DNA of 64,000 nt, from positions 481 to 64,480 of the forward strand of contig JALNVF010000002.1 of assembly GCA_023231445.1 (NCBI GenBank), in the 5' to 3' direction. The notes beneath the pieces were generated by a model. The model had not been told where the DNA came from, did not search any database, and saw nothing but the letters and a program-made list of their open reading frames with translations. This DNA comes from Treponema sp. GTDB lineage: Bacteria > Spirochaetota > Spirochaetia > Treponematales > Treponemataceae. Positions 7,714 through 39,735 of the stretch are shown piece by piece. A program made the translations under genes and the position numbers. The stretch's first letter is position 1. Each line of letters begins with the position of its first letter.

Positions 7714-7732
7714 ATACGAAATAGGAGAATGT

Positions 7733-10165
7733 ATGTATTCAGTAAACCGCGTTTTTTCCCGATTCCTGCTTCTTACTGCTTTTTTATTTTTTGTCTGTCT
7801 GCCGCTTGCCGCTCAGGACAGTACAACAGAAGATCCGAACTGGTTCTGGGGAAAGACAATTTCAGAAATATCATTTGAAGGGTTGAAGAACGTTAAAAAA
7901 TCCGAACTAACCGGTATTACGAGTGCATTTATCGGAAAACAATTTACCGAGGACGAATACAACAATCTTGTTGACCGTCTTTATGGGCTTGATATGTTTA
8001 CTGACATTACTCCGTATGCAAAGCATGATCCAAAAACTGCGGATGAAATTCTGCTTGTATTCAAGGTAAAAGAACGACCTGTCATCAAGGCAATAAATTT
8101 TGAAGGCAATAAAAAAATCCGGAACGGCGAACTGCGTGAAAGTGTGACCATAAAGACGGACGACATTTATCTCGAGAGCAAGGTTCTGCTTGATGAACGT
8201 GCTCTGCGTGATGTGTATTTGAAGAAAGGATATACAGATGCAAAAATAACTCACAAAACGGAAGAAACTGCTCAGGGTATAAAACTTACATTTGTTGTTG
8301 ATGAAGGTGCAAATACTGTCATAACTTCAATCCGTTTCAGCGGAAATACTGTTGTTTCCGAGCGTACTCTTAAAAGTAAGATTTCTCTCAAGGAAGCCGG
8401 CTTTATGAAGGACGGTGCCTTTCAGAAATCTTCTCTCGAAGCAGATAAGCAGACAATCATAACCTATTATCAGGATCGTGGATATGCCGATGCTAAAGTT
8501 GTCGACGTTATGCAGACTACTAATCTCAATGAGAAAAAGAACAGAAATGAACTTACACTCACGTTTGTTATTCAGGAAGGTGCTCAGTATACATACACCG
8601 GTACTACGATCAAAGGAAATGAAATATTCAAAGCTGATAAACTTATTTCATATATAAAACTAAAGGAAGGGGCTGTCTATAATCAGACGAAATATCAGGA
8701 AGGAATGCAGGGAATTACAAGTTTGTATGCAGAAAACGGTTATATGTCAAACCAGTATATTCCTGAAGTTAAAAAAGATGCAGAACGAAAGACGATTTCT
8801 TTTGCTCTTACGATAATTGAACGTTCACGCAGTCATATTGAGAATATTATTATAAAAGGAAATACGAAAACTAAGGATTATGTGATTCGTCGTGAAATCC
8901 CACTCGAACCAGGCGATGTGTTTTCGCGTGATAAAGTAATGTCCGGATTGCGTAATTTGTATAATCTTCAGTATTTTTCAAGCGTTGTTCCCGAACCTGT
9001 TGCCGGGTCCGAATCGGGACTAGTCGATCTTGTGATTACGGTAGAGGAACAATCGACGACATCTCTTGAATTCGGAATGACGTTTTCCGGTGTATCAAGT
9101 CCTGATGAATTTCCTGTATCTCTTTTTGCAAAATGGCAGAATTCGAACTTGAAAGGTGAGGGGAAAACTGTTTCTGCTAGTACCACGATTTCAAGTACGG
9201 ATCAATCCGTAAGCGGATCGTACGGACAAAACTGGCTGTTTGATCTGCCTGTAGGTATAAGTGAGTCACTTTCCGTTTCACACTCAAAGGATTCTGCATT
9301 ACGTAACGTATGGCTGCCTGACGGGGTTCTTGATAATGATTCATATTACATGCAGTATGAAAATTATTCGGTTACTCTCAGCTCTTCTCTTGGCAGACGA
9401 TGGACTCCGAATTTTGCTATTCTTTCACTGAGTGGCGGTGTTTCCTCAACTTTAAGCAACAATGTTTACGACGAGTCACTGTATACTCCGCTCGATTCAA
9501 GCGTGAATCAGACTGTAAACAGATTCGGGCTTAACAATTCACTCTGGACCAGCTTTTCTATGGATAATCGTGATATTAATTATGATCCATCAAAAGGGTG
9601 GTTTACGAGTCAGCGTATAGCGTGGTGCGGACTTATACCCGGCGTGGAAAAAGAGTTTTTCTTGAGAAGCGATACAAAACTTGAGTTATATGCTACATTA
9701 TTCAATATTCCGTTCGGTGATAAATGGTCTCTAAAAGGCGTACTTGCTGATTACACAGGCTTTACAACTATATTTCCGGTTCCAGGGTCTTTGCTCGGCG
9801 ATTCAAATAAGGTATACATTGACGGTATGTTCAATGCCCGCGGATGGACAAGCATTTACAATTCGACGCGCGGAAAAGCGATGCTCAGCAACAGACTTGA
9901 ATTTCGTGTTCCTCTCGTACCGAATGTCTTAGGGGTGGACGCATTTCTGGATGCTGCGGCTGTTAAGAGTGAGGTTTCTTCGATGTTCAGCAGTTTGTCT
10001 CTGAGTGATTTTTATTACAGTACGGGACCGGGAATCAGATTTCTTCTCCCTCAGTTTCCGCTGCATTTGTTGTTTGCAAACACGTTTAAGTACGACAAAA
10101 CTGACGGATTCTACTGGGTTAACAGCTGGCAGTTTGTTCTATCATTCAATATTACTAATAAATAG
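7733..10165 (+). CDS. bamA: Outer-membrane protein assembly factor BamA
   Basis: Signal peptide, POTRA repeats (ISFEGLKNV, INFEGNKKI, IRFSGNTVV, IIIKGNTKTKDYVIRRE...LYNLQYF), beta-barrel with an ARGW L6 motif. Confidence 0.95.
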   Translation: MYSVNRVFSRFLLLTAFLFFVCLPLAAQDSTTEDPNWFWGKTISEISFEGLKNVKKSELTGITSAFIGKQFTEDEYNNLVDRLYGLDMFTDITPYAKHDPKTADEILLVFKVKERPVIKAINFEGNKKIRNGELRESVTIKTDDIYLESKVLLDERALRDVYLKKGYTDAKITHKTEETAQGIKLTFVVDEGANTVITSIRFSGNTVVSERTLKSKISLKEAGFMKDGAFQKSSLEADKQTIITYYQDRGYADAKVVDVMQTTNLNEKKNRNELTLTFVIQEGAQYTYTGTTIKGNEIFKADKLISYIKLKEGAVYNQTKYQEGMQGITSLYAENGYMSNQYIPEVKKDAERKTISFALTIIERSRSHIENIIIKGNTKTKDYVIRREIPLEPGDVFSRDKVMSGLRNLYNLQYFSSVVPEPVAGSESGLVDLVITVEEQSTTSLEFGMTFSGVSSPDEFPVSLFAKWQNSNLKGEGKTVSASTTISSTDQSVSGSYGQNWLFDLPVGISESLSVSHSKDSALRNVWLPDGVLDNDSYYMQYENYSVTLSSSLGRRWTPNFAILSLSGGVSSTLSNNVYDESLYTPLDSSVNQTVNRFGLNNSLWTSFSMDNRDINYDPSKGWFTSQRIAWCGLIPGVEKEFFLRSDTKLELYATLFNIPFGDKWSLKGVLADYTGFTTIFPVPGSLLGDSNKVYIDGMFNARGWTSIYNSTRGKAMLSNRLEFRVPLVPNVLGVDAFLDAAAVKSEVSSMFSSLSLSDFYYSTGPGIRFLLPQFPLHLLFANTFKYDKTDGFYWVNSWQFVLSFNITNK

Positions 10166-14224: not shown

Positions 14225-14704
14225 ATGGCTTCAGAAGATTCACAGTTTCAGCTTGTCACATTCCAACTCGGCGATGAGTTATACGGTGTCGATATTATGG
14301 ATGTAAAGGAAATCGTAAAAATACAGGATGTCCGTCCGATACCTAATGCACCGTACTATGTCGAAGGAATTATAAATCTCCGTGGAGAAATTATTCCGAT
14401 TATTGATTTGCATAAGCGGTTCAGACTTAAGGCGCTTGCAAAAATAAATGATTATGATGATTTCGAGGGCGGTTTTATTATTTTAAGTATTGAGGATAAT
14501 AAAATTGGTATTATCATAGATCGTGTTGCCCGTGTTGTTCCTGTGAAATTAAGCGAAGTTAAACAACCTCCTCAGATGTTAAGTGGTATAGGAACTGAAT
14601 ATATACAGGGCGTTATCCGTTCAGAAAGCGGATATCTTATCATGCTCAATATACGAAAACTATTCAACCCGAAAGAGCTTCAGAAAATTATTGATATACA
14701 ATAG
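14225..14704 (+). CDS. cheW: Chemotaxis coupling protein CheW
   Basis: QLVTFQLGDELYGVDIMDVKEI, PIPNAPYYVEGIINLRGEIIPIIDL, IGIIIDRV. Confidence 0.96.
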   Translation: MASEDSQFQLVTFQLGDELYGVDIMDVKEIVKIQDVRPIPNAPYYVEGIINLRGEIIPIIDLHKRFRLKALAKINDYDDFEGGFIILSIEDNKIGIIIDRVARVVPVKLSEVKQPPQMLSGIGTEYIQGVIRSESGYLIMLNIRKLFNPKELQKIIDIQ

Positions 14705-14710
14705 GTAGAA

Positions 14711-15766
14711 ATGATCCGTTCATACAGTACAACTATCAGACGTAAAGAGATGGATGCGGTGCTTACCTGCATGGTGGACGAAAAAATAGGTCCCGGTGAG
14801 CTTAACATACGTCTTATACAATCGGTAAAAGATTTTTTTAAATGTGACGGGGCGGTTGCATTCCGCAGCCCTGCGATTGCGCTCAAATATGTGCTTAAGG
14901 CACTTGATTCGCCTGTCGGCAGTTGTGTTATGCTTTCAGCCCTTGCTCCTTCATGGCAGATTGTTGCGCTTGAGGATCTTGGTTATGTACCCCTTGTACT
15001 TGATGTCGATGAAACTACAGGACTTGTTACGCCTGATATAGTTTCCGAAGGTATAAAAACCGGTGGTCGTTTTCTGCTTCTGCATGAAACGCAGGGAATT
15101 ATGCCGGATATGGATGCATTGACGGCTCTTGGCATCCCTGTTATCGAGGATATTTCGCAGAGCGCGGGTGCAGTCATTCCTGCCACAGATGAGAATGGAA
15201 ATCCTGTTGAAGGCCGTCGTGCCGGTTCATTCGGCGTGTTTACTATTCTTGGCCTTGAGGAACACGATGTTATAACAGCGGGCGGCGGAGCCGTCCTTAT
15301 GGCACCCGGAAGACGAGAATGGATTCCTCTTAAAAAATTTACAGATTCTGCTCCTTTGACGGAACTTCTTCCGGATTTGAACAGTGCACTTGCATGGGTT
15401 GAGCTGCGTGAATTTCCAAAAAATGAAATTGTGCGCAGGGAAATTTTTACATTGTTCCAACGGTCGTGTATGGCAGGACGGCATAAGCTCTTTGTCCGCG
15501 ACATGGAAGGGGCATCGACTATGTGTTCGTTCCCTGTAGTTCTTTCAAGTTCTTATAAAGAAGTGAAACAGTATACCGACCGTAAGGACGTTGAAATCAG
15601 ACCTGCATATGAGAATTCTGTTATAGCACTCCGTGACGAACAACTTTCCGCCTCATGTATACATGCAAAATCGCTTTATCTAAGGTGTGTGTTGTTTCCG
15701 CTGTATCCGCGTCTAACGCATTCCGAGACAGCAAAAATTGTGAAAGTTCTTGGAACACTGCCTTGA
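14711..15766 (+). CDS. DegT/DnrJ/EryC1/StrS-family protein lacking the PLP Schiff-base lysine
   Basis: Fold-type I motifs (F.SPAIAL, PLVLDVD, PVIEDISQSAG, ITAGGG, LFPLYP), but the FSFxxxK motif reads ILGLEEHD. Confidence 0.8.
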   Translation: MIRSYSTTIRRKEMDAVLTCMVDEKIGPGELNIRLIQSVKDFFKCDGAVAFRSPAIALKYVLKALDSPVGSCVMLSALAPSWQIVALEDLGYVPLVLDVDETTGLVTPDIVSEGIKTGGRFLLLHETQGIMPDMDALTALGIPVIEDISQSAGAVIPATDENGNPVEGRRAGSFGVFTILGLEEHDVITAGGGAVLMAPGRREWIPLKKFTDSAPLTELLPDLNSALAWVELREFPKNEIVRREIFTLFQRSCMAGRHKLFVRDMEGASTMCSFPVVLSSSYKEVKQYTDRKDVEIRPAYENSVIALRDEQLSASCIHAKSLYLRCVLFPLYPRLTHSETAKIVKVLGTLP

Positions 15767-21506: not shown

Positions 21507-22088
21507 TTATATCTTTTGTACGGATTCGGTATCCTTTATGCAGCGGAGAAAAATTTCGCTGCAGACACGGGCATCGTCACATGCTCTGTGTGCATCTTCT
21601 ACCTTTATATTCATTGCATTTGCCAGATATTGAAGTCCATGATGAGAAGATGAAGGGTACGCCCAACGGCTCAGATTGAGTGTATCTATAGCTTTATTTC
21701 CCATTGAAGGCATGCTGCATCGTTCCAGTTCCTTATTAAGAAACAATAGATCGAACGGAGCATTATGAGCAATCAGAATGGAATTACCGATAAAATTAAT
21801 AAATTCCGGCAGTACGGTTTTTATAACCGGTGCAGAAGCAACCATCGTATCTGTAATGTGGTTTATATTTGTAGAACCGGCGGGAATCGGCGATTCCGGA
21901 TTGATGAGCGTATTGAATGTGTTAATAATACCGGATTTATCAAATTGAACTGCGCCTATTTCAATAATACGGCATGTGTCGGGGGAAAGTCCGGTTGTCT
22001 CAGTATCAACTGCTGTAAAGACTGTTCCGTTATTTAATAAACGGAGCAGTCTTTTATAGTCTCTGAGCAGTTTATTTGGAAGCTGCAT
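21507..22088 (-). CDS. DEDDh 3'-5' exonuclease (DnaQ/PolC epsilon-like)
   Basis: AVDTETTG, AHNAPFDL, HRACDDA. Confidence 0.92.
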   Translation of the reverse strand: MQLPNKLLRDYKRLLRLLNNGTVFTAVDTETTGLSPDTCRIIEIGAVQFDKSGIINTFNTLINPESPIPAGSTNINHITDTMVASAPVIKTVLPEFINFIGNSILIAHNAPFDLLFLNKELERCSMPSMGNKAIDTLNLSRWAYPSSSHHGLQYLANAMNIKVEDAHRACDDARVCSEIFLRCIKDTESVQKI

Positions 22089-23856
22089 CGAGTGTAGCTT
22101 TTATCTCTGATACGATAGAATCACAGAGCGAAGCTGATTCTTTTCGTGCACGGGCAAGACCTGTCTCGTTGTGCTCTGCAACGGGAACTACGGTATTTAT
22201 ATAGAATTTGATTTTTGGTTCAGTACCTGACGGACGAGCACTCACAACGGTCCCTCCCTCGAGGAAGAACTGAAGGACGTTGCTTTTCGGCATATCGTAT
22301 GGTTTTACAGAAGCGGGATCCGCAGGATCAAATGTTACACTTCGTTCGACGTCCCGGATCATTATAACGCGTTTGCCACCGAGTTCTTTCAAACCATCAC
22401 TGCGGAGTTTTGTCATGATACCTGACATGATTTCACTACCGCTTGATCCCGGAAAATACTGAGAAATCGCACGGTCTTCAAAATAACCGTACTCTTTATA
22501 CATATCATCAAGGTGTTCAATCAGACTCTTCCCTCTGCTTCTCCAGTAGAGCGTCATTTCTGCACAAAGTGCAGCGGCAGAAATGCCATCCTTATCAAAT
22601 ACTTCTTTTTCGATTTTATATCCATAGCTTTCTTCAAGGCCGAATACATATTCGCCTGAGTGATCGGCTTCCATCTTTGCCTCAGCCGCAGCGATCCACT
22701 TGAAACCGGTAAGACATTCGATCATTGAAACACCGTATTTCTTACAGATTGCATCGCCAAAAGGTGAAGTAACGATAGAACGGACTACCGCCGGTTTTTC
22801 CGGCATTGTTCCGAGTTCTTTACGCGAAAGCAGTACATATTCCATAAGAAGAGCACCCATCTGGTTTCCGCTTAGAAGGATAAATTTACCATTTTCATCG
22901 GGAAAAGCAGTTCCGAAACGGTCTGCGTCCGGGTCTGTTGCCATAACACAGTCCGCATGTTCTTTTTCACCAAGTGCGACGGCCATTTTAAGCGCTGGTG
23001 CTTCTTCCGGATTCGGCTTTTCGACAGTCGGAAAATCACCGTCAGGTTTACGCTGTTCCGGAACAGTTATAACCTTGAGCCCAAGGTCCCCGAGTACTTT
23101 CTCGACATGCATTGCACCTGTTCCGTGAAGCGGTGTATAAACTATTTTTACGTCTTTTGCATGATCCCGTATTAACGACGGGCGGAAAAGCTGGCGTTTA
23201 CACATATCCCAGAACGGTTCATCAATCTGCTTATCAATGAAAACGAGTTTACCTGTTTTTACAGCTTCTTCCTTTGAGAGTTCCTTAACTTCTTTTATTG
23301 CATTTACTTCTTTGATAATACCGGTATCATGTGGTTCAATGACCTGCGCCCCGTCGTTCCAGTATGCTTTGTAGCCGTTATACATACGGGGATTATGGGA
23401 AGCGGTAACAACAACGCCGGTATCAGCATGAAGCGACCTGATAGCGAATGAAAGTTCCGGAGTAGGGCGTACTCCGGTGAACAGATATGCTTTGATACCG
23501 TTTGCAGCGAAGATACATGCCGTCGCCTGCGCAAAAATGTCCGAATTCTTACGACTGTCGTATGCAATTACTGCACTAAGTGTTCCTGCTTTTGCTTTAT
23601 CGGGGAATGCTTTAATAACATAGTTTGCAAGCCCCTGCGTTGCACGATTTATTTCAAGTGTATTCATGCGGTTTGTACCGCCGCCCATGATGCCGCGCAG
23701 GCCGCCTGTTCCGAATTCAAGCGTCTGATAGAAGCGGTCCTCAAGTTCTTTTATATCATTTTTGGCAACCAGTTCTTCCACCTCTTTACGGAAACATTCA
23801 TCCTTTTCCTCTGCAATATATGCTTTTGCACGTTTTAAGATCTCTTCCTTATCCAT
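22072..23856 (-). CDS. Phosphoglucomutase/phosphomannomutase
   Basis: FGTGGLRG, TASHNP (phosphoserine), DPDADR, GLEESYG, RPSGTEPKIK. Confidence 0.93.
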   Translation of the reverse strand: MDKEEILKRAKAYIAEEKDECFRKEVEELVAKNDIKELEDRFYQTLEFGTGGLRGIMGGGTNRMNTLEINRATQGLANYVIKAFPDKAKAGTLSAVIAYDSRKNSDIFAQATACIFAANGIKAYLFTGVRPTPELSFAIRSLHADTGVVVTASHNPRMYNGYKAYWNDGAQVIEPHDTGIIKEVNAIKEVKELSKEEAVKTGKLVFIDKQIDEPFWDMCKRQLFRPSLIRDHAKDVKIVYTPLHGTGAMHVEKVLGDLGLKVITVPEQRKPDGDFPTVEKPNPEEAPALKMAVALGEKEHADCVMATDPDADRFGTAFPDENGKFILLSGNQMGALLMEYVLLSRKELGTMPEKPAVVRSIVTSPFGDAICKKYGVSMIECLTGFKWIAAAEAKMEADHSGEYVFGLEESYGYKIEKEVFDKDGISAAALCAEMTLYWRSRGKSLIEHLDDMYKEYGYFEDRAISQYFPGSSGSEIMSGIMTKLRSDGLKELGGKRVIMIRDVERSVTFDPADPASVKPYDMPKSNVLQFFLEGGTVVSARPSGTEPKIKFYINTVVPVAEHNETGLARARKESASLCDSIVSEIKATLDAASK

Positions 23857-23886
23857 TTTTAAAACTCCTTAGATATACAATAATAT

Positions 23887-25650
23887 TCAGTTATCTGCTT
23901 TCCTGAGCATGTCTGTCTCCCATTCCAGTAATTCTCTTTCTTCACCTTCTGCGGAACCCTTTACATCACACATGATGCGGAATACAGGTTCTGTACCGGA
24001 GCCTCTCATCCAGATGAATGCACACGGTTTTTTCTCTCTGTCAGAGAAGATAATTTTGAGTCCGCCTCTGCCGCTTACGGAAAAATCTGCTGTATTTCGT
24101 ACTTCTGCCGTTCCGTTTGTAAGGATAGATTCGTACGTGAGTATACCATATTTTTTAGAAAATGTATCAGCCTTTATTTTCCATTCAGTTTCGAAAATTT
24201 TTTGGAATCTGCCTTTAAGCAGCGCATGATCGGCCGCTTTTATATGAAGTATGGCACGAGGTTCTGAGACTCCTGTTGTTGTATAGACCGGGATTGTACT
24301 GATGACATCGGTGAGCGTAAAATCTTCCTTGTATGTATGTCCTGATTTCCTGCACCATGTCCGGTACAGACCGTCAATATTTATGAGTTTGATAATGGCA
24401 AATACAGAGGAAAGCGGATCACGTACGGAAGACGGATGTGTTATGTTTCCTCCATTGCTTCCTTCTCCGCATATACGGACCGTATAGCCTGCATTACGGG
24501 CGTTACGGGCTGTATTTACGACGTTTGCCTCACCGACTTCCGCCCTGAATACTTTTGCTCCGAATACTTCGGCAATCTCATTAATCCTCATCGATGTAGG
24601 ACCATTTACTGCAACAGCCGGTTTATAATCTGCAGCGCTGCCGTAGAGCATGTCAGCATATGCAAGTTCTGCAAGAACGGCAAGAGCGAATACTTCCTGC
24701 GCTTTCAGTATGTCTGCCTTCTGTTTTTTTTCATCCCAGTACACAATATTTCCGCGGTCCCCGTCACAGTCCGGCATATAACCGATTACTGCATCAGTAT
24801 GACCTTCTGCCTGAAGCCGCTCCATTTCTTTTGCACACCAGACAAGGTTTTCCGCCTCAGGTATGATTTCATGTACGATATCGCCTGCGGTGTTGTTGAT
24901 TGCGTAGAATGATATTCCGTTTTCTGTAAAAAAATCTCTGTCAATAGAAAGTGTCCGTGCAGAACCGTTCATATCACATACGACACCGACGGGATGCTTT
25001 TCTGTTGATTTTCGTATCTGTGAAAAAACTTCATTTTGTTTTTCCGGTGTTTTAACCGCAGTAACAACTTCACGGATGAACGCTTTATAGGAAGAGAGTG
25101 CTTTTTGTTTACATTCGGGTGATTCAGCATATATCCAGTCGACATCGGACGTACTGCAGGAATTAAGGACTGTGGCAGCCTTCTGCATTGCCTGTAAATC
25201 AGCGCATTTTTCCGTAAATGACTTAACAAGTTTTTCGTTTTCTTCAGAGTTAAGAACGCCTCCGTCATTAAGACCGAATTTTAAACCGTTATGTCCGACC
25301 GGATTATGACTTGCAGAGATATAAATGAAACCATCCATTTTTTTTGCATATGCCATGATTTCAGGCGCAGCCGTAATACCGAGATAGCGTACGATGGTTT
25401 TTTTTGCAAGCAGCGTATGGATGACTGCGGAAGATATTGCGGGACCTGTCGGACGGGCATCCATTCCGCATACGATGACTGGTGACTGCTGCTTTGTTGC
25501 ATTACGAATATAATCTGCAAAAACTTCTGCAGCGATAACTGCTAATACCGTATTTTCTGCTCCGATTTCCGGTGTATTGTCCTGGGCTTCTCCTGATTTT
25601 GCAAATACCTTGCGCCATCCGGATGCCGAAAGAATCATGTTATGTTGCAT
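23887..25650 (-). CDS. Second, divergent alpha-D-phosphohexomutase
   Basis: LSASGWRKVF, SASHNP, PDCDGDR, GEGSNGG, RGSGTEP. Start placed at ATG 25650 (track gives 25707). Confidence 0.85.
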   Translation of the reverse strand: MQHNMILSASGWRKVFAKSGEAQDNTPEIGAENTVLAVIAAEVFADYIRNATKQQSPVIVCGMDARPTGPAISSAVIHTLLAKKTIVRYLGITAAPEIMAYAKKMDGFIYISASHNPVGHNGLKFGLNDGGVLNSEENEKLVKSFTEKCADLQAMQKAATVLNSCSTSDVDWIYAESPECKQKALSSYKAFIREVVTAVKTPEKQNEVFSQIRKSTEKHPVGVVCDMNGSARTLSIDRDFFTENGISFYAINNTAGDIVHEIIPEAENLVWCAKEMERLQAEGHTDAVIGYMPDCDGDRGNIVYWDEKKQKADILKAQEVFALAVLAELAYADMLYGSAADYKPAVAVNGPTSMRINEIAEVFGAKVFRAEVGEANVVNTARNARNAGYTVRICGEGSNGGNITHPSSVRDPLSSVFAIIKLINIDGLYRTWCRKSGHTYKEDFTLTDVISTIPVYTTTGVSEPRAILHIKAADHALLKGRFQKIFETEWKIKADTFSKKYGILTYESILTNGTAEVRNTADFSVSGRGGLKIIFSDREKKPCAFIWMRGSGTEPVFRIMCDVKGSAEGEERELLEWETDMLRKADN

Positions 25651-25740
25651 AGTTATTACTATAACATGAAAGTTTTGCCGGTTCAAGTTAATATACTGCA
25701 GGAACATATCTGAAGGGGGCCATTCCCTTAAAATGTTTTT

Positions 25741-31148: not shown

Positions 31149-31955
31149 CTATGTCAGCTGCTCTAACGAGTAGCGTGTCAGATTAAGAAACTGCCGTCTC
31201 AAAATCGGATTATAATTTATTTCTTCCGCAGATTTATCAAACTGTTTTCCCGCCGTATCGACGAGAAAGCTGATATCTTTTGAGGAAAGCGGTAAATGAG
31301 TGCCTATGAGTCTGTTTTCGAGCTCAAGACTTCTGAATGTAACAGGTCCTGCAAATGCAAGCTTTATATTTGTTATCATTCTTTTGTCGTTATCAGCAAG
31401 AAACGCAAATGATGCACTCGTATCTGTTATTTTATGTTCCGGTCCCAGCCTGCGGAATACAGAAATATCCCAGTCGTTAAGGGGAATGCGGATGTTCGAC
31501 AGAATAAATCCCTGAGGAACACCGGTAAAATTCGGCAGAGGTACGTACAGCGTTTCGACCGGACTGCGCAGTTCAAGATGCGTGTCAAGAGCGAGTAATG
31601 AGGCATACAGCGAAAGTTTTATACCGGGAGCGCATATGTTTCCGCCTATGGTAGCGATGTTGCGGACTATCGGATTCGCAACGCTCTGTACTGCATCAAG
31701 GAATATATCAGGAACACGGGAACGACCGAGCGTAAGAATATCGGAAAGAACAACACCCGGACCGCAGTCAAGATATCGTTCGTGTTTTGTTATTACAGCA
31801 AGATCCTGAATCCCCCGTATTGAAATCGCTTTATCAGGAACCGTCTCAATCCGCGTACACCCTCCCACGATTTGCAGACCTGAAACAGACTTGAGTTGAT
31901 AGAAGAGTTCTGAAATAGTTTTTGCAAAGAAGAATGTGTGCTCAGTTTTTAGCAT
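31149..31955 (-). CDS. XDH/CODH-family FAD-binding (medium) subunit homologue
   Basis: IVGGCT, RNIATIGGNI, ALDTHLEL, IKLAFAGP. ATG 31955 overlaps the upstream gene's stop region. Confidence 0.8.
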   Translation of the reverse strand: MLKTEHTFFFAKTISELFYQLKSVSGLQIVGGCTRIETVPDKAISIRGIQDLAVITKHERYLDCGPGVVLSDILTLGRSRVPDIFLDAVQSVANPIVRNIATIGGNICAPGIKLSLYASLLALDTHLELRSPVETLYVPLPNFTGVPQGFILSNIRIPLNDWDISVFRRLGPEHKITDTSASFAFLADNDKRMITNIKLAFAGPVTFRSLELENRLIGTHLPLSSKDISFLVDTAGKQFDKSAEEINYNPILRRQFLNLTRYSLEQLT

Positions 31956-32433
31956 TTTTCTGCACCCCCATGCGGTGTACCCTGAAATCGAATGCATATA
32001 ATATACCGTTAATTAGAGTGTCTGTGTTCGTACAGCACGGTGACAGATGATTGACCTCTTCATAAATCATCCGCCTGTCCGGTTTCATGGATGTGTTTAA
32101 AATATGCCACGCCGAAAAAACTTTTCCTGCGTTGCAGTAGCCGCACATATTTATACCGGCTTTTTTAAAACCGTTTATGATATCCTGGTAATCTTCCTGT
32201 TTTGAAAAATATTCGAGTGTTATTATGGTAGAATCTCGAGAAAGCGCTACAGGAATAATGCAGCTTGGTACAGGTTTTCCGTCCAGAAGTACGGTACACG
32301 CTCCGCACCGGCCTTCGCTGCATCCGCACTTTACTGAAAGCAGGTTCAGGCGGCGGAGAACATTGAGCAGTCTGTCGTTGGGTTCTGATTCAAGAACTAT
32401 TTTTGCATTGTTAAGTGTTACCGGAATTTTCAT
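31942..32433 (-). CDS. XDH/CODH-family [2Fe-2S] (small) subunit homologue
   Basis: KCGCSEGRCGACTVLLDG...SC; second cluster MCGYC...PCC. ATGA overlap with the large-subunit stop. Confidence 0.9.
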   Translation of the reverse strand: MKIPVTLNNAKIVLESEPNDRLLNVLRRLNLLSVKCGCSEGRCGACTVLLDGKPVPSCIIPVALSRDSTIITLEYFSKQEDYQDIINGFKKAGINMCGYCNAGKVFSAWHILNTSMKPDRRMIYEEVNHLSPCCTNTDTLINGILYAFDFRVHRMGVQKNAKN

Positions 32434-34682
32434 GCAGTATCTCCCTGCGAATAGATTGTTTCTGCCGTACACGGCAGGCTGCATATACGTGCACTCAGTG
32501 CCTGTGAAAGCGCTGATGAAAATGCGGCCGGAACGGTATTATGGACAATTTCACCGATCTGTCCCGGATTGTCTTCTGATTGTATGAAGGAAATATGAAG
32601 ACCGTCACAGACGATTGTTTCATCGGCAACAAGCTGGCTGAGTTCCTGCTGTATAGACAGACGGAGTGTGTTTTCTATTGCATGTAAGGAAAATATCCTG
32701 CCGCAGTCTACGGTAAGCCAGATTCCTTTGATCCGTTCTTTATATGTGTACGGATCAAGTTCTATTTCGACAACTGCGGCACCAAAGGAAGTCGTATGAA
32801 ACGGAATACCCCTGAAATCAGATTTATTCCACTGTTTTTTCATTGACGGGCCAAGTCCTTTTTTTACTGTTAGAGGCAGTTGTGTTTTTTCACGTTTTTT
32901 TGCAATCTCAAGACTGCACTGAGTGAGAAGGTGCGTCATTATACTGATGTTGCTGTAAATATTGTCGGGCAGCGGCATTACGTCATTTATTTCCATGTCG
33001 GGGGTGATTTTTACAGCGGACGGCGGAAGTTTCAGAATGGCTGACACCGTCTTTATCCAGATTTCTGAAATCGACGGGGAGGGTACCAGCGAATGTATTG
33101 TCACCGCATTGTCGGATTCCAGTGTGACTGCAATTTTCTGACTGCCTGAAAAAATATCGTTCCCGAAATAACCGGAACCGTCAAAGGCACAGGTAAGTCC
33201 GATACCGCGGATCGGCAGTGCAAAGAAAGTGTCTTCGGAATTACGATGCTGTTTTGCGTCAATACGGAATGTTGTATATTTACGGTTAAAATCACTCATC
33301 GCAATAACATTATTGAGTACACTTTCTGCTTTTTCCGTATGGAAAATAAAGGGCATTTTTATGTTCTTTTGATTTGAACAGATGTTTTTAAGGCGGATGT
33401 CGGCGGGCAGAATATTAGTCTCTTCGGCAATAAGCTGCAGGTGATTTTCAGCGGCAAAAAAAGCCTGGGAATCAATCATTTCAGGAAAAATTGATGTCGG
33501 CGGGTTTGTTGATGTTACCGCTTTCGCGGTAATACAGATATTCGGGATGTCATAAATATTACAGACAGCAATAACGAGTCTGTCCAGAATTTCCTGTGCG
33601 AACGGGTTGCATGATCCGACATCAATTGTTATGTCCGCCTTTACAGCTGTAATAGAACCGTCTTTCATAACAGCTGTACGGTAATGAATCTTTGCAGGAA
33701 CTCCGGATTTCATAAATTTCTGATGTTCATCACGTGAAAGCGTAAGTTTTACAGGCTTCCCGGTAAGATATGCGGCGACGGCTGTCTGTATTGCAAGCGT
33801 TGCATTCCGCCATATACCGTTTGCATCATGTCCGCTTGAATTAGTTTCTCTGATGAATATTTTTTCGTTGTCAAGATTGAGCGAAACTGACACAGCTTTC
33901 CGCAGGTAATTCGGCCACTGCGTCGGAGTGAAAATATTCATAATGCCGTTTTCCATAAAGCAGAACGCGCCGTTTGTTTCAGTCCATGACGGTTGTTCTG
34001 TATCCTGTACCCATGTTTCCGATATGTCAAAGTCTGCTGATTTGAATACTGATTCATATACGTTCGGTGCATCATCCGAGAACAGTCCTGTTTTTACAAT
34101 ACGCTGTGCGATTACGGCTCCGGTATTTTCGCTCTGCGACGGAATCCGGGGTTCTGCAGTAATCGCTGCAGGAGGTTGAACAACAAATGACGGATCAAGA
34201 TTCATTGCTTTTGTAATTTCCAGAATCTGTTTTGCATCCGGCTTTTGTTCAGTATCAGGAAGTTTGATTACCGGATGAGTATATTTTTTTGCAACAGACT
34301 CAAGCGCTGATTCCAGTGTTGAACTGTCAAATGTAACTTCTATTTCAGACGTCAGTTCGTATACCTGCGATTCGTCCGGTCCTGCGACGATTCCGATCGG
34401 TTCTCCGAAATAAGAAACACGGTCAGCGCAGAATACCGGAGTGTCGGCGTTCTGTGTACGCACCGTATTGCGTCCGGGAATATCACGCGCAGTAAAAAGA
34501 AAATAACCGTCGGGCATCTGCGGTATGGAAATATTCGTGATAATTCCTGATGCTGCAGGGCTCCGTATAAGTGCCGCATACAGCATACCCTGCCTGCTGC
34601 AGTCAGTATAATAATCAAGAGCCTGAAGAGTTGTGCGTGCTGTTTTTTGTGAACGGACACTTTTTGTACTGCTCTTAGGCAT
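32430..34682 (-). CDS. XDH-family large subunit homologue with degenerate molybdopterin-binding motifs
   Basis: Hammerhead domain (MLYAALIRSP, TARDIPGRN, GEPIGIV), TGKPVKL, RGIG, GAAVVEIELD, DCG, GQIGE. Confidence 0.82.
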   Translation of the reverse strand: MPKSSTKSVRSQKTARTTLQALDYYTDCSRQGMLYAALIRSPAASGIITNISIPQMPDGYFLFTARDIPGRNTVRTQNADTPVFCADRVSYFGEPIGIVAGPDESQVYELTSEIEVTFDSSTLESALESVAKKYTHPVIKLPDTEQKPDAKQILEITKAMNLDPSFVVQPPAAITAEPRIPSQSENTGAVIAQRIVKTGLFSDDAPNVYESVFKSADFDISETWVQDTEQPSWTETNGAFCFMENGIMNIFTPTQWPNYLRKAVSVSLNLDNEKIFIRETNSSGHDANGIWRNATLAIQTAVAAYLTGKPVKLTLSRDEHQKFMKSGVPAKIHYRTAVMKDGSITAVKADITIDVGSCNPFAQEILDRLVIAVCNIYDIPNICITAKAVTSTNPPTSIFPEMIDSQAFFAAENHLQLIAEETNILPADIRLKNICSNQKNIKMPFIFHTEKAESVLNNVIAMSDFNRKYTTFRIDAKQHRNSEDTFFALPIRGIGLTCAFDGSGYFGNDIFSGSQKIAVTLESDNAVTIHSLVPSPSISEIWIKTVSAILKLPPSAVKITPDMEINDVMPLPDNIYSNISIMTHLLTQCSLEIAKKREKTQLPLTVKKGLGPSMKKQWNKSDFRGIPFHTTSFGAAVVEIELDPYTYKERIKGIWLTVDCGRIFSLHAIENTLRLSIQQELSQLVADETIVCDGLHISFIQSEDNPGQIGEIVHNTVPAAFSSALSQALSARICSLPCTAETIYSQGDTA

Positions 34683-35910
34683 GATATGTTTCTCCTGTCT
34701 CCTTTACCGCCTGTATTACTTCGTCTGCCATGTCGTCTGTCATTCCGGGCCACAGAGGAATTGATATTGTTTCAGTATACTGTTTTTCTGCGTTCGGATA
34801 GTTTTGTGCAGTAAAATCAGGATACAGCTTTTTCCAGTACGTGAACCGGAAAAGCGGAATAAAGTGGACAGAAATGCCGATTCCTTTCTTCTGCAGTTTT
34901 TTTGCGAAATCATCCCGGTTTATGGTGAGTTTTTCCGGTTTAATGCGCAGAAGATACAGATGCCATGCGTTTCCCGTACCGTCCGGCGGCAGTGTCACAA
35001 AATCAAATCCGCTGAATGCCTTATTATATTTACTGACGATTTTTATACGTTCCTCATAAAATGTATCCGCTTTTTTGAGCTGCTCCACACCTATTGCTGC
35101 AAGTATGTCAGGCAGATTGAATTTGTATCCGGGCTCTATGATGTCATACTCCCATGATGCACGCGGAGACGTGTAACGGTCCCATGTTGTCCGGTCCATA
35201 CCGTGCATGCGCATAACCTGTATGCGTTTTGCAAGAGAGGAATCACGGACACATACCATGCCGCCTTCTCCTGTCGTGATTGTTTTCGTCACATAGAACG
35301 AAAACACACCTGCATCTCCTATTGAACCCGCATATCCGAGCGGTGTACAGGAAGGGAACGCGTGGGCCGCATCCTCAATTACTTTTACTCCGTATTTTTT
35401 TGCAAGTGCGCATATTTTTTCCATATTGCATATGTTGCCTGCAACATGTACCGGAATAACGGCGCGTACTTTATGAGCAGTGTCGCTTTTCAGTATGTTT
35501 TCGACTTTCTGTACATCAATACTGTACGAATTCTTTTCGATATCCGCAAAATAAACATCCGCACCCAGATGACGCGCACATGTTGCCGTTGAGACGAATG
35601 TATACGGTGTCGTTATTACGGCCGTTCCGGGGCGTACTCCGCATGCGTCCATCGCAAGAATCATGCCGCTTGTATTACTATTAACTGCGAAACTCACTGC
35701 CGGTGTCGTGTCCAGTCCTTTATTTTTGCGTTCGGTTATAATTTTATCAGACACGTCGTTTATTTTTTCCGAAAAATCTTTTTCAAACTGCAGGGCATAT
35801 CTTCCTGTCGTGAGCCAGCCGGAGCGGAGTACAGACAGAACTGCGTTTTCTTCCTCAGGGCCGATCGACGGACGCGAGAAAGCAACTTTGAGAGAATCAC
35901 AGTCAGCCAT
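34675..35910 (-). CDS. DegT/DnrJ-family sugar aminotransferase (intact PLP lysine)
   Basis: SGWLTTG, NSNTSGM, IEDAAHA, FSFYVTKTITTGEGG, GYKFNL, AWHLY, SIPLWP. Confidence 0.95.
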   Translation of the reverse strand: MADCDSLKVAFSRPSIGPEEENAVLSVLRSGWLTTGRYALQFEKDFSEKINDVSDKIITERKNKGLDTTPAVSFAVNSNTSGMILAMDACGVRPGTAVITTPYTFVSTATCARHLGADVYFADIEKNSYSIDVQKVENILKSDTAHKVRAVIPVHVAGNICNMEKICALAKKYGVKVIEDAAHAFPSCTPLGYAGSIGDAGVFSFYVTKTITTGEGGMVCVRDSSLAKRIQVMRMHGMDRTTWDRYTSPRASWEYDIIEPGYKFNLPDILAAIGVEQLKKADTFYEERIKIVSKYNKAFSGFDFVTLPPDGTGNAWHLYLLRIKPEKLTINRDDFAKKLQKKGIGISVHFIPLFRFTYWKKLYPDFTAQNYPNAEKQYTETISIPLWPGMTDDMADEVIQAVKETGETYHA

Positions 35911-37457
35911 TATTGAATTTCTCCTTCATATACAGCAGTTTTTGCATAGAAATCTGCAAGCGACGGCACTTCGTCTGAAAGCACCGAAATAAGATAATGA
36001 CGGTTGCGGAATTTATCCGGATCAATATCTATGTTTTCACCCCCGATACATACTGGCCGCAGTTTTTCAAGCAGCATGCCGAGACGGCTGTCTGTATACG
36101 GCATGTTTTTAAGCTGGAGAATTTTTTCGTACGACGTTTTCTGCGGGGCTTCTTCAGGGAGCCACAGCGGTTCCACGCTGCGTTCACCTTTTCGTGTACC
36201 GATAAATTTTATGTCAATGTCTTTATACGGTTCAAATCCGCTGAATCGTATTATCTGTTCGGCGATATCGACAATTTTTACCGGAGTCCCCATATCAAGC
36301 AGGTATGAAGAACCGTTCGTACCGACACCACCGGTGCGCAGAACAAGCGAGCATGCTTCGGGAATTGTCATAAAAAAACGTTCCATGCGGGGATCTGTGA
36401 CAGTTAAAGGGCCTCCGTTTTTTATCTGTTCCATAAAGAGGGGAAGAATCGATCCCCGGGATCCCAGAACGTTGCCGAACCGTACAAACATGAAAGCGTT
36501 GTCGTCCTGTGCTTTTTCCGCGTACGCAAGAACAAGCTTTTCACAAAGCATCTTTGATACTCCGTATACCGAAACAGGTGCAACAGCTTTGTCGGTGGAA
36601 ATAAGCACAAACCGGTGTACATTGTGTGCGATACACGCATCAAGAATGTTTTTTGTGCCAAATACATTGTTTTCGATCGCAGCGACCGGATTTTCCTCCA
36701 TCATGGGAACGTGTTTATACGCTGCACAGTGAAAAACAATATCGCAGTGCGTGTGAGAGATAATATAGTCGGTATAAGCCCTGTCTTTCATGTCGCCGAT
36801 GATCGGAACTATCGAAGCTTTTTCACCAACACCTTCTTTTTGAAGCAGCCGGAGTTCCCTGTCGATCTGATAGATTGAGTTTTCTCCGTGACCAAAAAGA
36901 TAGAGACGCTCTGCACCTCCCGAGAGGAGCTGGCGGGCAAGTTCCGAGCCGATCGATCCTCCTGCTCCGGTAATAAAGACGCGCTTTCCCCTCAGATAAG
37001 AAAGACTTTCCTTGAGAGAAATTGTAACAGGGGTACGGCCAAGAATATCAAGCGGATCAATTTCACGGGCCTGAACAAGATGTGCAGTTCCGTTTACGAC
37101 CTGACTTATCCCCGGCAGTATCTTTATGTGTGCAAAACCTCCTGCCTTGAGAATTTCATATATTTCCTTTATACGTTCTGTCGGTGCACTTGGAATAGCG
37201 ATTATCGCCTCGTCGTCTTCTGTACAGGATAAAAGTGATGCAATGTTGTCTATCGGGCCTATGACCGGTATTCCGTCGAATTCCTGGCCGATAAGCGCCT
37301 TGTCGTCGTCGAGAAAAGCCGAAACAGTACCGAATATCTTTTTCCGTTTTATATCATCGGCGATTGATATGCCGGCGAAACCGGCGCCTATGATATAAAG
37401 GTGTTTTTGGTTTTTATTCACATTTTTTACTATATCATACAGAATATGTTTCTTCAA
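35910..37457 (-). CDS. CapD/PglF-family UDP-sugar 4,6-dehydratase without N-terminal membrane domain
   Basis: ITGAGGSIGSEL, HCAAYKHVP, STDKAV, YGVSK, RFGNVLGSRGS, RFFMTIPEA. Confidence 0.93.
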   Translation of the reverse strand: MKKHILYDIVKNVNKNQKHLYIIGAGFAGISIADDIKRKKIFGTVSAFLDDDKALIGQEFDGIPVIGPIDNIASLLSCTEDDEAIIAIPSAPTERIKEIYEILKAGGFAHIKILPGISQVVNGTAHLVQAREIDPLDILGRTPVTISLKESLSYLRGKRVFITGAGGSIGSELARQLLSGGAERLYLFGHGENSIYQIDRELRLLQKEGVGEKASIVPIIGDMKDRAYTDYIISHTHCDIVFHCAAYKHVPMMEENPVAAIENNVFGTKNILDACIAHNVHRFVLISTDKAVAPVSVYGVSKMLCEKLVLAYAEKAQDDNAFMFVRFGNVLGSRGSILPLFMEQIKNGGPLTVTDPRMERFFMTIPEACSLVLRTGGVGTNGSSYLLDMGTPVKIVDIAEQIIRFSGFEPYKDIDIKFIGTRKGERSVEPLWLPEEAPQKTSYEKILQLKNMPYTDSRLGMLLEKLRPVCIGGENIDIDPDKFRNRHYLISVLSDEVPSLADFYAKTAVYEGEIQ

Positions 37458-37492
37458 TTGAAACAGTAATCAGCTGTTCAGATAAAAAAGAC

Positions 37493-37520
37493 TAAACACT
37501 CTTTTCCTTTAAGCCGATGA
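37493..37520 (+). promoter_or_regulatory. Candidate sigma28 promoter
   Basis: TAAA(37493-37496)-N16-GCCGATGA(37513-37520). Confidence 0.55.
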
Positions 37521-37554
37521 TCAGTAAGATAGAAATTGATTCGCGGGGTCAATT

Positions 37555-38067
37555 ATGGGGAAAAAACGGTTCTTTGCCGTAATACTGGTACTTTTGTGCA
37601 TGTTTTCCGGCTGGAGTGCAGAGTTGTCTTTCCAGATTGTTCAGCATGACAATGTGCAGGAAAAAGTATGTGAGCAGACTCTTGTTATAGAAGATGAAAT
37701 GCTCGATTATTTTTTCAGCAAAGGAAATATTGTGACGAATGAACCGGCGGTGTCTGTAAAAGACGGCGGAGACGAGGCAGTATGGAAGACTGCATTTGCC
37801 GGTGCTGCGGCAGGAGGATCCCGGTATTTCGTTCAGCTTCGTCTGTATTACGATACAGCAGCATCAACGAATCCTGAAGCGGTTTCGCTCAGTAATATTG
37901 ATTATGTGACATGGACGATAACCGACGTCCAGTCAGGAAAGACACTTTCCGATATGAAAGCAATGGTGGATAAACCGGCATCCGGTCAGGATGATGCTGA
38001 CAGTGTAAGAGAATATGCCGCAGAAATTGCGGAGCAGATACAGAAAACCTTGGAAGTAAATTCATAA
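37555..38067 (+). CDS. Hypothetical exported protein
   Basis: 170 aa with a signal peptide ending WSA; lies 12 nt upstream of the SPOR gene. Confidence 0.8.
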   Translation: MGKKRFFAVILVLLCMFSGWSAELSFQIVQHDNVQEKVCEQTLVIEDEMLDYFFSKGNIVTNEPAVSVKDGGDEAVWKTAFAGAAAGGSRYFVQLRLYYDTAASTNPEAVSLSNIDYVTWTITDVQSGKTLSDMKAMVDKPASGQDDADSVREYAAEIAEQIQKTLEVNS

Positions 38068-38079
38068 AGGAAGGGAAAT

Positions 38080-39735
38080 ATGAAAAATAAAATACAAATT
38101 ATTTTTGCAGTAGTCATAGGCTGTCTTATGTTTGCTTCATTCAGTCCGTCCCTTGACGGAAGGGCTGTTGTGGCTGACGAAGGAACTTTTCCTGAAGGTC
38201 TGTTTGCAAAGACTGTCGGCTATCTGCCGGGAGACAGCATTACCGTCTCGAATTTATCAACTAAAAAAACGATTGATATTCTGGTTGTAGGGGCTCTTGA
38301 TCCGTCAGAAGGAGTTGCAATCCTTCTTTCCCCGGAAGCAGCATTTGCTCTGGGAATCGAGAAGAATTCGAACAGTATCGTAAAGATTACCAAACGTTCC
38401 GGTCAGCTTGATGAAGCTGTATCCGGTACGGCTGTCATTGCAGAAGGAACGGCAGCAGCTCCGTCTGACAGTGCTCAGACAACTGCTGCAGATACTGCAG
38501 CTGCAGAGACGACGGAACCGCCTGCAGATTCTCCTTCAGATAATACCACTGAAACAGCAGGTGCGCCTGGTGCGGAAACGGCAGATGCAGGAGCAGCACC
38601 GGCTCAACCGGAAAAAACAGCGGATGAATCAGATGCGGAAACAATTTCTGCAACCGAAGCTCCGGTACAGCCGGAGTCCGCCGGATCTGAAACAGAATCA
38701 GTAACGTCCGGTGATGAAACTGCAGGGGAAACAACGCCTGCTGCCGGTGAAAAAATAGATGAGGAAACACCTTCTCCAGAAGAGACGGCAGAAAATTCTG
38801 GCGGCACACCGGAAACTTCTGCAGACGGAACGACTCCGCCGGCAGGAGAAATAATTAATGAAAAGGCTCCGTCAGAGGAAACTGCTGCAGTGCCGCCGGC
38901 AGCAGAACCAGAGAATACAGATGACGGTATGCCCGGTGAGTCAGAAGAGAAAGTTAATGATAAAATTCCGGAAACCACCGCTTCTTCAGCAGTACCTGTT
39001 TCGGAAGCTGCAGTCGACGATAAGGAAGCAGAAACTGAAACAGCAGCTGGCGAAAAAGTGGATGAAAATATTCCTTCCGCAGAGGAAACTCCGGAAAAAA
39101 CGTCAGACGCCCCGGCCGGTGAAGATACTGTTGCTGCGGAACCGTATGTTGAAAAACCTGATGAAAAACCTTCTGAAGATGTATCAGTTCCGGCCGAAAA
39201 AGTCGATGAACATCCTGCTGCGGAGGAAAAAACCACAGCTGCTGCAGAACCGGTACCTGATGAATCCGTGACGGAAAATACACCGTCTCCTGTTGAAAAC
39301 AAAGTGGCTGAACCTGATGCATATGCACCGATTATTCTTGTTCCCGCGGAGCCGAATCCACCTGAATCCGACAAAGGAACGCCGGAAACAAAGGCTGCAG
39401 AGGAGGCGTCTGCTGTTCCTGAAAATACTGCCGGAGAGACAGCTCCTGGAGATGCACCGTCTGAAGGAGAATTTGACAAATATACGGTGCCGAGCCTTAA
39501 GGCGCTTTCAAGCGGCAGATATTACATCCAGATCGGCGTCTATGCAGACGAAGCAAATATCCGCAAAGTTGTCAGAAAATATGCAGGTGCGTATCCGGTT
39601 ACGATCGTACCTCTCGTTTCGGGAAAGGCAAAACAACTGATGATCGGTCCTCTTTCCGTAGACGAGTATGCTGCAGTGATTGAACGGTTCAAGTCGTACG
39701 GATATAAAGATGCATTTTTACGGAAAATAAAATAG
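38080..39735 (+). CDS. RlpA-like N-domain, long acidic linker and C-terminal SPOR domain
   Basis: Signal peptide; ITVSNL...LLSPEAAFALGI; A/E/T/P-rich linker; YYIQIGVYADEAN...LMIGPL...GYKDAF. Confidence 0.85.
   Translation: MKNKIQIIFAVVIGCLMFASFSPSLDGRAVVADEGTFPEGLFAKTVGYLPGDSITVSNLSTKKTIDILVVGALDPSEGVAILLSPEAAFALGIEKNSNSIVKITKRSGQLDEAVSGTAVIAEGTAAAPSDSAQTTAADTAAAETTEPPADSPSDNTTETAGAPGAETADAGAAPAQPEKTADESDAETISATEAPVQPESAGSETESVTSGDETAGETTPAAGEKIDEETPSPEETAENSGGTPETSADGTTPPAGEIINEKAPSEETAAVPPAAEPENTDDGMPGESEEKVNDKIPETTASSAVPVSEAAVDDKEAETETAAGEKVDENIPSAEETPEKTSDAPAGEDTVAAEPYVEKPDEKPSEDVSVPAEKVDEHPAAEEKTTAAAEPVPDESVTENTPSPVENKVAEPDAYAPIILVPAEPNPPESDKGTPETKAAEEASAVPENTAGETAPGDAPSEGEFDKYTVPSLKALSSGRYYIQIGVYADEANIRKVVRKYAGAYPVTIVPLVSGKAKQLMIGPLSVDEYAAVIERFKSYGYKDAFLRKIK

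Follow-up and report, generated by a model that had tools for sequence, protein, structure and literature searches.

We analyzed a 64,000-nucleotide stretch of a Treponema sp. genome, referred to here as the window (assembly GCA_023231445.1, contig JALNVF010000002.1, positions 481 to 64,480 of the forward strand). It contains a five-gene operon that joins two predicted nucleotide-sugar genes, a capD/pglF-like dehydratase gene and a degT-family aminotransferase gene, to xdhL, xdhS, and xdhF, a trio coding for the large, small, and flavin adenine dinucleotide (FAD)-binding subunits of a xanthine dehydrogenase (XDH)-like complex. Judged by its motifs, the large subunit is incapable of canonical molybdenum cofactor (Moco) binding, and this holds across its family. 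We consider it somewhat probable that the trio is an autonomous, ancient spirochete module that works as a molybdenum-independent flavo-iron-sulfur oxidoreductase and that its link to sugar genes in Treponema is secondary. Because every motif that would hold Moco is lost while the flavin and iron-sulfur (Fe-S) sites are kept, the “xanthine dehydrogenase” annotations are probably wrong about the chemistry of the trio.

The evidence for loss of the Moco site comes from motif mapping, in which XdhL was aligned with HMMER to solved XDHs and then jointly with canonical relatives; family counts rest on 81 Treponema xdhL orthologs. In the window XdhL, GGGFGGK is replaced by SSGHDANG, the Arg880 region by MKSGVPA, AFRGFG by SIFPEMI, EMGQG by VPSPS, PTAAS by PDNIYS, and GQxxGGxxQG by ENTLRLSIQQ, and the xGE motif reads GQIGE. 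The Moco-contacting motifs are likewise replaced in all 81 orthologs and are intact in the canonical relatives of the same alignment. A first-pass annotation of this DNA had listed replacements at these motifs and proposed that the large subunit lacks canonical Moco binding. Every listed replacement is present in the alignments, and the proposal extends to the whole set of orthologs. The same annotation had pointed to a retained catalytic GE, which is present in the window protein, but the corresponding position (bovine E1261) is Glu in only 27 of the orthologs (E27/G20/K17/N6/D5/S3), so its presence is a coincidence of the window sequence. The equivalent of Gln767, which contacts the Mo=O group in XDH, reads Q29/K27/R24. 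The window XdhL has both the Glu and the Gln; because both positions vary across the orthologs, both catalytic residues appear to be unconstrained.

Loss of these motifs reaches beyond the orthologs. In deep relatives from Sphaerochaetaceae and from a clade of termite and other Treponema, GGxFGGK, GQG, and GQxxGG are all gone, and remnants such as FxGFG and SGP..SR stay. From this gradient, it would seem that function was lost early and that remodeling then proceeded stepwise. The XdhL family comprises 740 clusters at 50% identity below an E value of 1e-30, and its 150th best match still scores 373 bits. Its members carry the database name [quoted passage not shown] In the protein-database and representative searches, the names among the matches were Treponema sp., T. 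socranskii, Spirochaetia, and Sphaerochaetaceae. They did not include T. denticola, Borrelia, or T. pallidum, to which the first-pass annotation had attributed a similar cluster.

The protein is predicted to have kept its fold. An AlphaFold2 model of XdhL built from 69 family sequences has a pLDDT of 82 and a pTM of 0.82, with disorder confined to the N-terminal tail and a variable insert at residues 134 to 186. A Foldseek search with this model returned full-length matches to Desulfovibrio gigas aldehyde oxidoreductase (AOR; 1sij), bovine xanthine oxidase (XO; 1fiq_C), Rhodobacter capsulatus XDH (1jro_B), quinoline oxidoreductase (1t3q_B), and 4-hydroxybenzoyl coenzyme A reductase (1rm6_A), at TM scores of about 0.71 and 15 to 18% identity. 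XdhL thus has the hammerhead and the two Moco-binding domains that mark the large subunits of the XO, aldehyde oxidase, and carbon monoxide dehydrogenase (CODH) family. An additional Fe-S site in the large subunit was considered and rejected, as the sole conserved family-specific cysteine, C590, is also a cysteine in bovine XDH.

The retained fold also appears to be maintained by selection. Relative to its closest relative, xdhL has a ratio of nonsynonymous to synonymous substitution (dN/dS) of 0.09 at a dS of 0.54, similar to the ratios of 0.04 to 0.08 of its neighbors. By this measure, the xdhL family is under strong purifying selection and is not a pseudogene. Such a protein could nevertheless be a noncatalytic pseudoenzyme, that is, a scaffold or regulator in which any bound Fe-S clusters and flavin would be needed solely for folding or redox sensing. 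The lack of constraint on both classical catalytic residues and the higher evolutionary rate of the large subunit compared with its neighbors are consistent with such a role, and a phenotype linked to reactive oxygen species (ROS) at a Borrelia locus, described below, could fit a sensor. However, signatures that are strongly conserved among the 81 orthologs have taken the place of the former Moco loops, namely NG(I/L)WR, NPFAQEIxDR, NPPTSI, DSQAFFAxEN, PS..I..IW, and GQIG, and this conservation at active-site loops points to a site that binds a ligand and not to a vacant pocket. Eight cysteines and the FAD motifs have also been kept over very deep divergence, and an assembly of three subunits and roughly 1,180 residues is costly to maintain. 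On these grounds, we regard a pseudoenzyme as distinctly unlikely.

The other two subunits retain the residues expected for electron transfer. In XdhS, the predicted [2Fe-2S] ligands are C55, C60, C63, and C75 for one cluster and C114, C117, C150, and C151 for the other (numbering of the long open reading frame [ORF]), a mapping that agrees with alignment to the solved structures of AOR and nicotinate dehydrogenase. All eight are present in 73 to 74 of the 74 Treponema orthologs that have a residue there, and they are found in distant clades too. The first-pass annotation had remarked on two oddities of this subunit, MCGYC in place of the expected QCGxC and SPCC in place of a CxC-type cluster end, and both are present. 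The pterin-contacting Gln of QCGxC is L, M, or F in Treponema and P in distant clades. As for SPCC, the HMMER alignment indicates that the CC at Cys150-Cys151 (window positions 31978 to 31983) results from a one-residue deletion in CxC. The CC form occurs only in the Treponema core clade, while deep members, including Sphaerochaetaceae, have CRC, CAC, CTC, CPC, or CNC. XdhF is very divergent, but its family profile matches solved FAD subunits (4zoh_B at 5e-22, CutM, and NdhF), and the motifs GGxxxL and VRNxxTIGGN are conserved and aligned to them. The earlier proposal that the FAD and Fe-S parts had been retained therefore stands at the level of the eight cysteines and the FAD motifs.

Comparison with three-subunit XDHs (PucD/E/C and XdhA/C/B) clarifies what has been kept and what has been lost. 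The spirochete trio shares with them the three subunits in the order large-small-FAD, the four-domain large-subunit fold at a TM score of about 0.71, the eight Fe-S cysteines, and the FAD motifs, and its best NCBIfam matches are pucD, XdhC_XDHase, and XdhB_XDHase. Unlike those enzymes, the spirochete family has replaced Moco motifs, variable catalytic Glu and Gln positions, a change of Q to L, M, F, or P before CGxC, and, in the Treponema core, CC for CxC. The Treponema trio further differs in having no CO_deh_flav_C match and no purine-catabolism neighbors; its operon partners are instead capD and degT. Its nearest canonical relative, P0314 (locus L089), has all Moco motifs intact, the same large-small-FAD order, and a CO_deh_flav_C domain. 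P0314 is flanked by genes for uricase, 5-hydroxyisourate hydrolase, and an amidohydrolase, neighbors that mark it as an ordinary purine-catabolic XDH. From the motifs and gene order of P0314, it would follow that the spirochete family descends from an enzyme of that kind.

Could the trio still be a genuine molybdenum hydroxylase, that is, a xanthine or aldehyde dehydrogenase that binds Moco in an unusual way, as it is annotated and as has been suggested for the Borrelia locus? In favor are its placement in the family by fold and Pfam, the current database names, and effects of uric acid and allopurinol at the Borrelia locus (PMC9993122). Nevertheless, none of the Moco motifs survives, and the catalytic Glu and Gln positions either have lost these residues or are free to vary. 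Scores of the operon proteins against the XDH, CODH, and Puc equivalogs in NCBIfam fall 5- to 20-fold under the cut-offs (e.g., 128 bits against a cut-off of 784 for pucD), and the purine-catabolism neighbors seen beside P0314 are absent. Among about 45 window ORFs scanned with Pfam, no Moco, XdhC, or molybdenum transport family was found, and the 64-kb window contains no Moco riboswitch, in agreement with the first-pass annotation, which had reported neither xdhC nor a Moco biosynthesis gene. Together with the failure of the Borrelia authors to detect activity (PMC9993122), these points make a molybdenum hydroxylase highly improbable.

The Borrelia system deserves closer comparison. Borrelia burgdorferi bb_0554 to bb_0556, named xdhACB by Phelan et al. 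in 2023, encode proteins of 622, 155, and 289 amino acids and are required to resist ROS and to infect both ticks and mice (PMC9993122). The name was based on fold prediction (with 12% coverage of the Moco domain for BB_0554), rescue by uric acid, and sensitivity to allopurinol, and the authors read the trio as a true xanthine dehydrogenase, even though its XDH activity was undetectable (PMC9993122). Like the trio described here, this is a three-gene spirochete operon with proteins of similar sizes, including one with a barely recognizable Moco domain, a small Fe-S-like protein, and an FAD subunit; it differs in that no sugar genes are reported beside it. It also adjoins ligA, as the Sphaerochaetaceae loci do. 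By its description and its gene order and sizes, the Borrelia trio is probably the same kind of module.

Molybdenum-independent members of this family have been considered before. In 2018, Peng et al. described orphan XO-family homologs in genomes that lack a full Moco pathway and suggested that molybdenum-independent forms may exist (PMC6147048). Their survey identified no sequence feature that sets the orphans apart, whereas the spirochete family has an explicit, family-wide loss of Moco motifs; the part of their tables examined has no spirochete entries (PMC6147048).

How the trio is distributed bears on its relationship with the sugar genes. With one genome scanned per species, relatives turned up in 264 species; gene order was inspected in the best-matching 80, all of which are of Treponema type. 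The order capD-degT-xdhL-xdhS-xdhF is present at about 76 of the 80 loci; contig ends truncate two others, and capD is nonadjacent in two more. T. socranskii shares this cluster and its outer neighbors (SPOR protein, branched-chain aminotransferase, ribF, and rpsO). The five genes also recur in deeper lineages. In L083, ligA, the SPOR gene, and two further genes are followed by nusG-paralog-capD-degT-xdhLSF-x-dnaE-yggT-recG; in L084, the order is flgF-flgG-capD-degT-xdhLSF-ruvB; and in a JGI contig, a nusG paralog lies ahead of the five genes. This linkage bears out part of the sugar coupling that the first-pass annotation had proposed, with synteny as the check. The coupling does not extend to Sphaerochaetaceae, in which it is absent, or fully to L088, which lacks degT.

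Indeed, the trio occurs without degT in L085, L086, L087, and L088. At three Sphaerochaetaceae-type loci, ligA is followed by xdhLSF-dnaE-yggT-recG, with neither capD nor degT. The trio thus occupies an equivalent chromosomal place there without the sugar genes, which argues that its core role is autonomous. In L083, capD and degT are inserted within the same ligA...dnaE frame that the Sphaerochaetaceae trio occupies. L088, a Treponema lineage, has capD and xdhLSF with degT missing; the 745-bp gap between capD and xdhL (7257 to 8000) holds only a 66-amino-acid ORF, and tblastn found no degT remnant in it. Genes for a Wzm/Wzt-type ABC transporter and for glycosyltransferases lie downstream in L088. 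Given the exceptions in Sphaerochaetaceae and L088, and the persistence of the faster-evolving trio independently of the sugar genes, the linkage is strong without being obligatory, and it is the trio that persists more. Sphaerochaeta are not known to have flagella. If capD and degT serve the flagellum or the envelope, their loss there and an independent role of the trio would be in keeping with this.

The sugar genes themselves belong to a familiar type. CapD consists of an N-terminal, soluble Rossmann domain resembling CoA_binding_3 and a Polysacc_synt_2 domain of the short-chain dehydrogenase/reductase (SDR) superfamily, as identified with Pfam. Among solved structures, its best match is Campylobacter jejuni PglF/WlaL (5bju/5bjy, 247 bits), ahead of CapE/FnlA (147 to 161 bits) and PseB (2gn4, 128 bits). 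The N-terminal membrane domain of long-form dehydratases was not found in CapD, in which the maximum Kyte-Doolittle hydropathy over 19-residue windows is 1.18. Across Treponema, CapD identity is 70 to 93%. More generally, the sugar genes are better kept (65 to 93% identity) than the trio (40 to 57% for the large subunit) across these loci.

DegT scores 325 bits against the NCBIfam PseC model (cut-off, 423.5), 281 against ArnB, and 149 against RfbH, and its best match in the PDB is ArnB (1mdo, 221 bits), against 108 bits for E1 dehydrase and 82 bits for PglE. The Schiff-base residue Lys209 is kept in 79 of 79 orthologs, in line with the first-pass description of an intact aminotransferase. We infer that DegT is an aminotransferase acting at C4 of a nucleotide-4-keto sugar; the predicted product of CapD and DegT is likely UDP-4-amino-4,6-dideoxy-N-acetylhexosamine (HexNAc), which might be destined for a nonulosonic acid, a bacillosamine-like sugar, or a glycolipid. 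Relative to ArnB, DegT has an insert of about 20 residues (about residues 50 to 70), and cysteines at residues 90, 111, 161, and 220, kept in 68 to 78 of 81 orthologs, replace hydrophobic core residues of ArnB. A possible Fe-S site formed by these cysteines was considered and set aside.

Two known kinds of system invite comparison with these genes. First, CapD and DegT resemble the pairs PglF/PglE of C. jejuni, WbpM, CapD, and PseB/PseC. The 247-bit match to PglF covers the catalytic fragment, including the linker, and an aminotransferase gene with the pyridoxal phosphate (PLP) lysine adjoins capD, so that the SDR catalytic domain with its linker and the adjacent DegT that characterize such pairs are both found. 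The Treponema pair differs in that its CapD has no membrane domain, its aminotransferase is nearer to ArnB and PseC than to PglE, and the operon has no adjacent gene for an acetyltransferase, a glycosyltransferase, or a nonulosonic acid synthase.

Second, the first-pass annotation had likened the operon to the E1/E3 systems for 3-deoxygenation in 3,6-dideoxyhexose synthesis (DdhC/DdhD and RfbH/AscD), in which, as here, a DegT-fold gene accompanies a gene for flavin/[2Fe-2S] electron transfer in a nucleotide-sugar pathway. This analogy fails on DegT. E1 enzymes have His in place of the PLP lysine, use pyridoxamine phosphate, and carry a [2Fe-2S] cluster, whereas the Treponema DegT keeps the lysine and is PseC/ArnB-like. 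The putative reductase has XDH architecture, with FAD_binding_5, a two-cluster subunit, and a 750-amino-acid subunit, rather than that of the ferredoxin-NADP-reductase-type E3, and co-occurrence of the trio with DegT is not obligatory. E1/E3-style coupling to DegT is not supported, given Lys209 in 79 of 79 orthologs, the scores (RfbH 149 versus PseC 325 bits; E1 108 versus ArnB 221 bits), and the trios without degT.

A more general form of the coupling idea holds that the trio is dedicated to sugar tailoring: the Moco-less complex might draw on FAD and Fe-S electrons to reduce, or act by radical chemistry on, UDP-4-keto- or 4-amino-6-deoxy-HexNAc or an acyl group on its amine. The former dinucleotide-cofactor pocket would then bind the nucleotide sugar. 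The overlapping five-gene order in most Treponema loci and in deeper lineages favors this, as does a NusG paralog, typical of polysaccharide operons, that precedes the five genes in three lineages. Also on this side, the T. denticola flagellins carry a nonulosonic acid of pseudaminic acid (Pse) configuration with a 2-methoxy-4,5,6-trihydroxyhexanoyl N-acyl group; in the portion of that report consulted, the biosynthesis of this 3-deoxy-hexonoyl group is unexplained (PMC13439194). Nevertheless, Sphaerochaetaceae have the trio but neither sugar gene, and L088 has it with capD alone. DegT, furthermore, is a conventional Lys-type aminotransferase rather than an E1-like enzyme, and the sugar genes evolve much more slowly than the trio. 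Moreover, CapD is nearer to the retaining PglF than to the inverting PseB, so a link of the operon to a Pse-type flagellin glycan is not established. We therefore hold dedicated sugar tailoring to be possible though doubtful; given how tightly the operon is conserved, it is still a serious rival.

Several points weigh against an autonomous, molybdenum-independent module with a secondary sugar link. The near-universal five-gene order in Treponema argues for a functional tie to the sugar pathway, and its tightness may mean that this reading underrates that tie; the placement of the L084 operon directly after flgF and flgG points the same way. A single XdhF sequence finds no match in the PDB, and Pfam does not detect the CO_deh_flav_C domain of XdhF, though the alignment of the family profile reaches residue 251 of 4zoh_B. 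Occupancy of the flavin and Fe-S sites, which look intact, is predicted from motifs. Finally, some Treponema have molybdenum or tungsten enzymes.

We propose that the operon combines two units. In the first, the PglF-type 4,6-dehydratase and the PLP aminotransferase would make UDP-4-amino-4,6-dideoxy-HexNAc. The second is a spirochete-specific descendant of the large-small-FAD type of XDH whose sequences show loss of the Moco site and of the catalytic Gln and Glu and retention of the FAD subunit and of both [2Fe-2S] sites. Through the FAD, a pyridine nucleotide (or ferredoxin) would exchange electrons with the two clusters, and the chain would terminate in a new site that is specific to the family and framed by the motifs now found in place of the Moco loops. 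If the Borrelia locus is orthologous, its ROS phenotype could indicate a redox- or stress-related housekeeping role. The linkage in Treponema would then reflect coexpression, perhaps with a secondary metabolic link, rather than an obligatory partnership of the E1/E3 kind. A bolder version, which strikes us as rather unlikely, is that the former Moco/dinucleotide pocket has been rebuilt for a nucleotide sugar or a nonpterin cofactor and that electron flow from FAD through the two [2Fe-2S] clusters drives one-electron chemistry there. The trio would in that case define a molybdenum-free class in Treponema, Sphaerochaeta, and probably Borrelia that, in Treponema, feeds or modifies the 4-amino-6-deoxy-HexNAc pathway.

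The XDH family is treated as strictly Moco dependent, and hundreds of spirochete genes, including some from pathogens and from abundant gut and rumen Treponema, are annotated accordingly. If the molybdenum-independent module that we favor is real, it would clearly exemplify reuse of a scaffold by a large clade under selection that kept the electron wire and gave up the molybdenum site, and the virulence-linked “xanthine dehydrogenase” of Borrelia would call for rereading. The trio would also point to an uncharacterized redox activity, shared by nearly all Treponema and apparently coexpressed with an amino-sugar pathway.

The layout of the operon and its flank is given in the table below. The ORF map and Pfam support the first-pass outline of five overlapping minus-strand genes made up of a CapD/PglF-type gene, a DegT gene, and an XDH-like trio.

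Features of the operon and its upstream flank (window positions)
Feature	Position	Strand	Basis
capD/pglF-like gene; long-form UDP-HexNAc 4,6-dehydratase, soluble (predicted)	35910-37457	-	Pfam PF02719 (Polysacc_synt_2), 7e-110
degT; DegT-family PLP sugar aminotransferase, catalytic Lys209 (predicted)	34675-35910	-	Pfam PF01041, 3e-99
xdhL; XDH-family large subunit homolog, 750 amino acids	32430-34682	-	Pfam hammerhead PF01315, MoCoBD_1 PF02738 (1e-39), short MoCoBD_2 PF20256 stretch
xdhS; small subunit with two [2Fe-2S] sites, 163 amino acids from conserved start	31942-32433 (long ORF, 31942-32484)	-	Pfam Fer2 and Fer2_2
xdhF; FAD-binding medium subunit, 268 amino acids from conserved start	31149-31955 (long ORF, 31149-31997)	-	Pfam FAD_binding_5, 3e-19
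Short divergent intergenic region, presumed promoter region	37458-37554	between operon and upstream pair	ORF map
Small secreted-looking protein, upstream of operon, transcribed divergently	37555-38067	+	ORF map
SPOR-domain protein, upstream of operon, transcribed divergently	38080-39735	+	SPOR match

On the ORF map, capD and degT overlap by 1 nucleotide and degT and xdhL by 8. The xdhL/xdhS junction is an ATGA overlap with the xdhS start at 32433, a start shared by 73 of 81 orthologs. For xdhF, ortholog alignments place the start at 31955, giving a 14-nucleotide overlap with xdhS. No membrane segments were found in any of the five operon proteins. A promoter and terminator scan gave signal no higher than shuffled background, and the 64-kb window contains no tRNA genes and no Rfam families at gathering score. 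The window derives from a landfill metagenome, and the operon sequence was matched in two landfill-metagenome runs only and in no RNA runs.

Some further features of these regions are worth recording. The NusG paralog lies directly upstream of capD in L083 (4811 to 5353), L088 (5194 to 5730), and the JGI contig; neither the window nor T. socranskii has it there. The pair formed by the small secreted-looking protein and the SPOR-domain protein is again found next to the operon in T. socranskii, L083, L088, and one JGI contig; in the window, the SPOR-domain protein carries an acidic, low-complexity region of about 400 residues that is rich in Pro, Thr, Ala, and Glu. Elsewhere in the window, a second DegT-like ORF of 351 amino acids (14711 to 15766, plus strand) sits between cheW (14225 to 14704) and an NAD kinase gene. 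Its match to the Pfam DegT model, at 72 bits, is limited to the N-terminal half, and it may be a truncated or diverged aminotransferase. Finally, a tandem pair of phosphoglucomutase/phosphomannomutase-like genes lies at 22072 to 25707 on the minus strand, of which the upstream gene (23887 to 25707) matches domain I only.

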